Assembly: GCF_057098645.1 (NCBI RefSeq)
Contig: NZ_CM169472.1
Strand: one strand, 5' to 3'
Length of the DNA: 64,000 nt
The notes beneath the pieces were generated by a model. It was given only the letters and a program-made list of their open reading frames with translations. It did not search any database and was not told where the DNA came from. How positions within the stretch are numbered: position 1 is the stretch's first letter; every line of letters starts with the position of its first letter. The position numbers and the translations under genes are program-made. Positions 58,178-60,451 of the stretch are shown here, in pieces.

Positions 58178-60451
58178 ATGGGAAGCCCCTCTCTGTATTC
58201 TGCCCGTAAAACAGCCCTGGCGTTGGCAGTCGCCTTAAGTTTCGCCTGGCAAGCACCGGTATTTGCCCACGGGGGCGAAGCGCATATGGTGCCAATGGAT
58301 AAAACGCTTAAAGAATTTGGCGCCGATGTGCAGTGGGACGACTACGCCCAGATCTTTACCCTGATTAAAGATGGCGCGTACGTGAAAGTGAAGCCTGGTG
58401 CGCAAACAGCAATTGTTAATGGTCAGCCTCTGGCACTGCAAGTACCGGTAGTGATGAAAGACAATAAAGCCTGGGTTTCTGACACCTTTATTAACGATGT
58501 TTTCCAGTCCGGGCTGGATCAAACCTTTCAGGTAGAAAAGCGCCCTCACCCACTTAATGCGCTAACTGCGGACGAAATTAAACAGGCCGTTGAAATTGTT
58601 AAAGCTTCCGCTGACTTCAAACCCAATACCCGTTTTACTGAGATCTCCCTGCTACCGCCAGATAAAGAAGCTGTCTGGGCGTTTGCGCTGGAAAACAAAT
58701 CGGTTGACCAGCCACGCAAAGCCGACGTCATTATGCTCGACGGCAAACATATCATCGAAGCGGTAGTGGATCTGCAAAACAACAAACTGCTCTCCTGGCA
58801 ACCCATTAAAGATGCCCACGGTATGGTGTTGCTGGATGATTTCGCCAGTGTGCAGAACATTATTAATAACAGTGAAGAATTTACCGCTGCCGTGAAGAAG
58901 CGCGGTATTACTGATGCGAAGAAAGTGATTACCACGCCGCTGACCGTAGGTTATTTCGATGGTAAAGATGGCCTGAAACAAGATGCCCGGTTGCTCAAAG
59001 TCATCAGCTATCTTGATGTCGGTGATGGCAACTACTGGGCACATCCCATCGAAAACCTGGTGGCGGTCGTTGATTTAGAACAGAAAAAAATCGTTAAGAT
59101 TGAAGAAGGTCCGGTAGTTCCGGTGCCAATGACCGCACGTCCATTTGATGGCCGTGACCGCGTTGCTCCGGCAGTTAAACCTATGCAAATCATCGAGCCT
59201 GAAGGTAAAAATTACACCATTACTGGCGATATGATTCACTGGCGTAACTGGGATTTTCACCTCAGCATGAACTCTCGCGTCGGGCCGATGATCTCCACCG
59301 TGACTTATAACGACAATGGCACCAAACGCAAAGTCATGTACGAAGGTTCTCTCGGCGGCATGATTGTGCCTTACGGTGATCCTGATATTGGCTGGTACTT
59401 TAAAGCGTATCTGGACTCTGGTGACTACGGTATGGGCACGCTAACCTCGCCAATTGCACGTGGCAAAGATGCACCCTCTAACGCAGTGCTCCTGAATGAA
59501 ACCATCGCCGACTACACTGGCGTACCGATGGAGATCCCTCGTGCTATCGCGGTATTTGAACGTTATGCCGGGCCTGAGTATAAGCATCAGGAAATGGGCC
59601 AGCCCAACGTCAGTACCGAACGCCGGGAGTTGGTGGTGCGCTGGATCAGTACAGTGGGTAACTATGACTACATTTTTGACTGGATCTTCCATGAAAACGG
59701 CACTATTGGCATTGATGCCGGTGCTACGGGCATCGAAGCGGTGAAAGGTGTTAAAGCGAAAACCATGCACGATGAGACGGCGAAAGATGACACGCGCTAC
59801 GGCACGCTTATCGATCACAATATCGTGGGTACTACGCACCAACATATTTATAATTTCCGCCTCGATCTGGATGTAGATGGCGAAAATAACAGCCTGGTGG
59901 CGATGGACCCGGTGGTAAAACCGAATACTACCGGTGGCCCACGCACCAGTACCATGCAAGTTAATCAGTACAACATTGGCAATGAACAGGATGCCGCACA
60001 GAAGTTTGATCCGGGCACGATTCGTTTGTTGAGTAACCCGAACAAAGAGAACCGCATGGGCAATCCGGTTTCCTATCAAATTATTCCTTATGCAGGTGGT
60101 ACTCACCCGGTAGCAAAAGGTGCCCAGTTCGCCCCGGACGAGTGGATCTATCATCGTTTAAGCTTTATGGACAAGCAGCTTTGAGTAACGCGTTACCATC
60201 CTGGCGAGCGTTTCCCGGAAGGCAAATACCCGAACCGTTCCACTCATGACACCGGTCTTGGACAATACAGTAAGGATAACGAGTCGCTGGACAACACCGA
60301 CGCCGTTGTGTGGATGACCACCGGCACCACGCATGTGGCCCGCGCCGAAGAGTGGCCGATTATGCCGACCGAATGGGTACATACTCTGCTTAAACCATGG
60401 AACTTCTTTGACGAGACGCCAACGCTAGGGGCGCTGAAGAAAGATAAGTGA
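58178..60451 (+). pseudogene. tynA: tynA (periplasmic copper/topaquinone amine oxidase) with in-frame premature TGA at 60182-60184
   Basis: Reading frame continuous over 758 codons except a TGA at codon 669 (…HRLSFMDKQL*VTRYHPGERF…); the downstream 88 codons still encode the recognised TynA C-terminus including the TTHVARAEEW region. Confidence 0.8.

Follow-up and report, generated by a model that had tools for sequence, protein, structure and literature searches.

A premature opal stop codon in tynA of an Escherichia coli O145:H28 sub-lineage and the probable stepwise decay of its phenylethylamine pathway

Introduction

The closest described system is the primary-amine oxidase of E. coli K-12, encoded by tynA and also referred to as ECAO. 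Transcription of tynA and of feaB is activated by the AraC-family protein FeaR, and the enzyme has been detected only upon induction with tyramine or phenylethylamine (PMC4640556). Formation of the topaquinone (TPQ) cofactor requires copper and O2 (PMC2593700). The copper ligands of the Arthrobacter enzyme are His431, His433 and His592 (PMC3382800), and PROSITE signatures for the TPQ site (PS01164) and for copper binding (PS01165, TtGttHVaraEEwP) are quoted in PMC4640556. Detection of the gene is a poor guide to activity, as only 22 of 39 tynA-positive strains both grew on phenylethylamine and displayed enzyme activity (PMC4640556, Elovaara et al. 2015).

Here, we analyze a stretch of 64,000 nucleotides (hereafter, the window), which covers the paa-tynA-feaB-feaR region of the chromosome of a Shiga-toxin-producing E. 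coli O145:H28. The window contains the same gene in the same context as K-12 (paaZ, tynA, feaB and feaR), and the TPQ tyrosine and the HxH copper ligands are encoded in both. The two differ in that the product of the window ends at codon 669, and thus is without positions 326-407 of the catalytic profile and without the third copper ligand. We consider it very likely that the TGA at this codon is a genuine and recent nonsense mutation, limited to one sub-lineage within E. coli O145:H28, which has made tynA a pseudogene in the course of a neutral, stepwise decay of a pathway that was already disabled. No earlier description of the allele, named W669*, was found in a literature search that combined tynA or feaR with O145.

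Results

Position of the premature stop in tynA

Translation of the tynA frame from the ATG at 58178 gave 668 sense codons, a TGA as codon 669, another 88 sense codons and then, at 60452-60454, the natural TAA (Table 1). The local sequence at the stop reads ...GAC AAG CAG CTT TGA GTA ACG.... With tryptophan restored at the stop, residues 31-757 align colinearly with the K-12 chain of 727 residues (PDB entries 1oac, 1dyu and 1d6u) and differ from it at four sites. The K-12 chain has Trp639 at the position of the TGA, and all 88 residues downstream are identical to K-12. The mutation is W669* in the numbering of the precursor and W639* in that of the mature protein. The intact orthologue carries the name tynA in the RefSeq annotations of strains RM13514 and C325. 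The first-pass annotation, made from the DNA sequence of the window alone, had placed the stop at codon 669, at a Trp codon of K-12 and ahead of 88 conserved codons, and this description proved accurate throughout.

Table 1. Features of the tynA locus and of the neighbouring fea and paa genes, in window coordinates
Feature	Position	Strand	Remarks
tynA frame (primary-amine oxidase, ECAO)	58178..60454	+	757 codons plus TAA, one interruption
Premature opal stop, codon 669	60182..60184	+	TGG to TGA, G-to-A at 60184; +4 base G
Truncated product, 668 aa (predicted)	58178..60181	+	Signal peptide, N1, N2, N3, catalytic-profile positions 2-324 of 407
Orphaned tynA 3' end (88 codons)	60185..60451	+	Catalytic-profile positions 326-407; His719 codon at 60332-60334
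feaB (phenylacetaldehyde dehydrogenase), intact	60510..62009	-	Convergent with tynA
feaR pseudogene (AraC-type activator of tynA and feaB)	62245..63150	+	In-frame TAG at codon 60, 62422-62424
PaaK C-terminal remnant, 76 aa	51045..51275	-	Deletion scar between paaF and paaX; PF14535 positions 29-96 of 96

Reality and rarity of the TGA allele

The closest complete genome, C325, differs from window positions 49366-64000 by a single mismatch, which is located at 60184 (A in the window, G in C325). Direct comparison showed that the same base also separates the window from RM13514, RM13516 and GF3-3. For tynA in the 24 best complete genomes, the printed identity of 100.0% is a rounded value; the bit score is 4429, the value expected for exactly one mismatch, and these genomes thus carry TGG. 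When a 61-nt query centred on the TGA was compared with 5,426 complete RefSeq E. coli genomes, 26 of the O145:H28 type among them, none matched it exactly, whereas 1,358 matched at 60 of the 61 positions. Sharing of the TGA by the 24 O145 genomes, as suggested by the printed identity, was ruled out by the bit score, the direct comparison and the 61-nt query.

Since the allele is absent from all of these genomes and the difference is one base only, the TGA could be taken for a sequencing or assembly error in a strain that really carries TGG, an outcome that the first-pass annotation had also considered. However, the exact 668-aa truncated protein was found on 21 contigs in one look-up and on 24 contigs in 34 index blocks in another (NCBI, ENA and Logan), where the numbers are counts of contigs and blocks rather than of isolates, and some may share the same reads. 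Moreover, the Logan assembly of SRR8751452, which was built independently, is 100% identical to the window over positions 48178-64000 (15,823 bases), TGA included, and the site lies outside any homopolymer. With independent assemblies showing the same TGA, we give the error explanation next to no chance. The intact O145:H28 TynA protein was found on at least 1,000 contigs.

Thus, the TGA allele is real, rare and limited to a small O145:H28 sub-lineage. Compared with the intact O145:H28 allele, no other change is seen in or downstream of tynA, in keeping with a recent origin.

Consequences of the truncation

Scanning the window's tynA against Pfam identified PF07833, PF02727, PF02728 and PF01179, all above the cut-offs and in the order N1, N2, N3 and catalytic domain. 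The catalytic domain is incomplete in the product, as the profile match is restricted to the positions upstream of the stop (Table 1). The product is short of the last 89 residues, corresponding to approximately 20% of the catalytic domain.

Two of the functional elements are encoded upstream of the stop. The precursor tyrosine of TPQ is Tyr496 (mature Tyr466) at 59663-59665, in the motif LVVRWISTVGNYDY, which has the N-Y-D/E pattern of PS01164. The HxH copper ligands are His554 and His556 (mature 524 and 526) at 59837-59845. The third copper-ligand histidine, His719 (mature His689), is located 50 codons past the TGA and is absent from the product. A query of 47 residues around His719 gave gap-free alignments with the E. 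coli chain (residues 675-721), in which the histidine is at 689, and with the Arthrobacter globiformis chain (residues 578-623), in which it is at 592. This alignment to Arthrobacter His592, together with the PS01165 motif, confirmed that the histidine in TTGTTHVARAEEW is the third copper ligand, as had been proposed from the sequence of the window. The computed positions agree with His524, His526 and His689, which are presumably the copper ligands named for the E. coli enzyme by Parsons et al. (1995).

The loss would not be restricted to the copper site. Leu638 and Val681 belong to the lining of the hydrophobic core in the beta-sandwich (PMC2593700), so the truncation is predicted to cut into that core as well. 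An early end of translation would remove the final fifth of the catalytic beta-sandwich along with the third copper-ligand histidine; with the copper site gone, the topaquinone cofactor would not be made and the enzyme would be inactive. Judged by its predicted sequence, the truncated TynA is very likely inactive.

Readthrough or recoding of the UGA

A point against an inactive enzyme is that a low level of UGA readthrough with insertion of Trp would yield a certain amount of wild-type protein. Of the three stop codons, UGA is the leakiest, and tRNA-Trp is its near-cognate reader. The tRNA competes with RF2 at UGA, and readthrough in a K-12 reporter amounted to approximately 2% at 37 C and 4% at 25 C (PMC10570021). 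Insertion of Trp at codon 669 would regenerate the exact wild-type sequence. These observations could be extended to the suggestion that the UGA is recoded, either by programmed readthrough with Trp or by selenocysteine, and that useful full-length enzyme is made.

Several results argue against recoding. The K-12 values were obtained from a strain with a defective RF2 (A246T) and are hence inflated (PMC7530605); in the O145:H28 strain, the RF2 gene prfB is located outside the window. The +4 context is leaky with A and C and tight with U (PMC5289835), whereas the base that follows the tynA TGA is a G, neither of the leaky two. The 60 nt after the TGA fold worse than shuffled controls (z = +1.23), indicating that there is no stimulatory structure, and an Rfam search at the tynA stop found no family, and nothing SECIS-like, at E-values up to 1. 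The UGA is not conserved among orthologues, with TGA in 0 of the 5,426 complete genomes and TGG in every other E. coli examined. Finally, the activator gene feaR is itself a pseudogene, so little tynA transcript is expected to be available for readthrough.

Selenocysteine insertion and stimulated readthrough were both rejected on the grounds that there is no Rfam match, no stable downstream structure and no conservation of the UGA. We consider it extremely unlikely that recoding yields a useful amount of enzyme. The readthrough mechanism that the first-pass annotation had put forward, with near-cognate insertion of Trp, is sound, but its relevance at this locus is doubtful given the +4 G and the defective RF2 of K-12. 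Readthrough of the UGA is probably of no importance here.

State of the surrounding pathway

The in-frame TAG of feaR (Table 1) is fixed in the complete genomes of the O145:H28 type. In RM13514 and C325, feaR is marked with "internal stop" in the RefSeq annotation. An exact 61-mer around the TAG was identified in 26 of the 5,426 complete genomes; all 26 are of the O145:H28 type, none is of any other, and they are the same 26 genomes that top the tynA search. Past the stop, an open reading frame of 219 aa starts at the ATG at 62491 and keeps the HTH_18 DNA-binding domain and part of the AraC_binding_2 sensor domain. Its ribosome-binding site looks weak. Based on these domains, re-initiation at this ATG might conceivably provide some residual FeaR activity. 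We infer that tynA would not be induced without FeaR.

The lower part of the pathway is also affected. The genes paaG, paaH, paaI and paaJ and most of paaK are missing, as seen from gene calls on the identical Logan contig, from Pfam matches and from the annotation of C325. The paaG-K deletion is annotated in C325 too, and the matching region is similar in span in other O145:H28 genomes, which suggests that the deletion is common to other O145:H28 genomes. A functional phenylethylamine pathway is thus lacking in two respects: feaR is not intact and the paaA-K set is incomplete.

The outbreak strain RM13514 has a frameshift in paaC and an internal stop in feaB (equivalent to about 53824 and to 61559 in the window), both of which are absent from the window. 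Both are secondary hits that arose independently, in another O145:H28 sub-lineage. Two SNPs in the promoter region of the divergent genes paaA and paaZ, at 55743 and 55815, separate RM13514 from the window, from C325 and from the Logan contig. A polar effect of the tynA stop on downstream genes was also considered and was rejected, because the next gene, feaB, is convergent.

Other rearrangements in the window

A segment of 175 bp at 49192-49366, which lies between the stop codon of paaY and the start codon of pdxI (49188-49190, minus strand), is inverted in the window relative to C325. Of the 5,205 complete E. coli genomes that matched the query, not one had the segment collinear with its flanks; the best coverage was 69%, and none reached 80%. 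In the Logan assembly of SRR8751452, it is oriented as in the window. No inverted repeats flank the inversion, and its breakpoints share an overlap of 1 nt only. In the common orientation, the sequence would form a 10-bp terminator-like hairpin (AAACCGCAAC-N10-GTTGCGGTTT), and one of the breakpoints lies in its loop. The other breakpoint is 1 nt from the ATG of pdxI, which leaves this gene without its usual leader and ribosome-binding site.

An IS3-family element of 1,311 bp is inserted in ynbD at 40803-42113. Its identity to the copy that interrupts ydcF in C325 is 99.9%, and the window carries no insertion at the ydcF site (34132-34134). The Logan contig ends at approximately the edge of the IS element, consistent with the same ynbD insertion in SRR8751452. 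The inversion near pdxI and the ynbD insertion may mark the same sub-lineage as the tynA allele.

Discussion

With feaR and paaG-K already broken, tynA is very likely to be under relaxed selection, and we suggest the following history. The lineage would first have lost its regulator, through the feaR nonsense mutation, and the lower pathway, through the paaG-K deletion. The remaining genes of the cluster would then have drifted under the relaxed selection, and W669* would be one of several late and independent hits. The different additional lesions in other O145:H28 strains, such as the feaB stop and the paaC frameshift of RM13514, fit an ongoing erosion. W669* is thus probably both late and neutral. 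A point against regarding the pathway as dead is that a cell using phenylethylamine for nitrogen requires TynA only, and the paa deletion alone would leave tynA useful.

This context also changes the weight of the finding. The first-pass annotation had read the stop as the loss of an enzyme, a reading that is supported, but it had missed the feaR pseudogene and the loss of paaG-K. With these taken into account, the significance is lowered: an enzyme is not so much lost as a pathway that was already dead is hit once more.

Another explanation is that the knockout was selected for. In a broken pathway, residual TynA would yield only H2O2 and phenylacetaldehyde, and its loss could be favoured, in parallel with the tynA-less O157:H7. 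In support of this, TynA releases H2O2, and tynA was PCR-positive in 0 of 28 O157:H7 strains as compared to 82% of the non-O157 EHEC strains (PMC4640556). One O157:H7 genome also matches the paaY-pdxI query on the pdxI side only, and there are several independent inactivating hits in the cluster within O145:H28. However, the vast majority of the O145:H28 assemblies keep the intact allele (at least 1,000 contigs, against about 24-34 contigs or index blocks with the truncated protein). With feaR inactivated, there would be scarcely any expression of tynA, and selection would find little to work on. A single allele in a single sub-lineage agrees with the prediction from drift, and the presence of tynA varies across E. 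coli as a whole. Taken together, this gives selection for the knockout only a small chance of being correct. The broader proposal, that loss of periplasmic amine oxidation was convergent and selected in the EHEC lineage, O157:H7 and O145:H28 included, with W669* as the adaptive final step, is very doubtful. One reason for such selection might be that H2O2 or aldehyde made by TynA harms bacteria that carry Shiga-toxin prophages.

We therefore return to neutral decay as the preferred explanation, under which the locus provides a clean example of a catabolic pathway that erodes stepwise once its regulator has been lost. The biological weight of the mutation is low, as this is a textbook pseudogene of a well-characterised gene, and a standard annotation would flag the internal stop. 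The tynA SNP is a marker of a specific O145:H28 sub-lineage that could aid in outbreak or lineage typing. The allele also supports the published warning that detection of tynA by PCR does not equal a functional enzyme.

How the locus compares with described cases of tynA loss can be summarized from three sides. First, tynA is an accessory gene, found in 3,283 of the 5,426 complete E. coli genomes. Second, the window resembles the tynA-positive but inactive isolates in PMC4640556, in that the gene is detectable and a functional enzyme is not expected. In those isolates, however, the sequenced mutations were outside the essential residues and the cause of the inactivity was left open, whereas the window has an explicit nonsense mutation along with the feaR and paa lesions. 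Third, there is a likeness to O157:H7 and CFT073, since catabolism of phenylethylamine and phenylacetate has been lost in an EHEC lineage and several independent lesions have accumulated in one cluster. The difference is that the whole region is absent from O157:H7 and CFT073, the latter being short by 33 kb (PMC4640556), whereas O145:H28 keeps most genes of the cluster, which is eroding by point mutation, small deletion and frameshift. Thus, loss of tynA function is common and already documented in E. coli, and W669* is an ordinary case of a known process.
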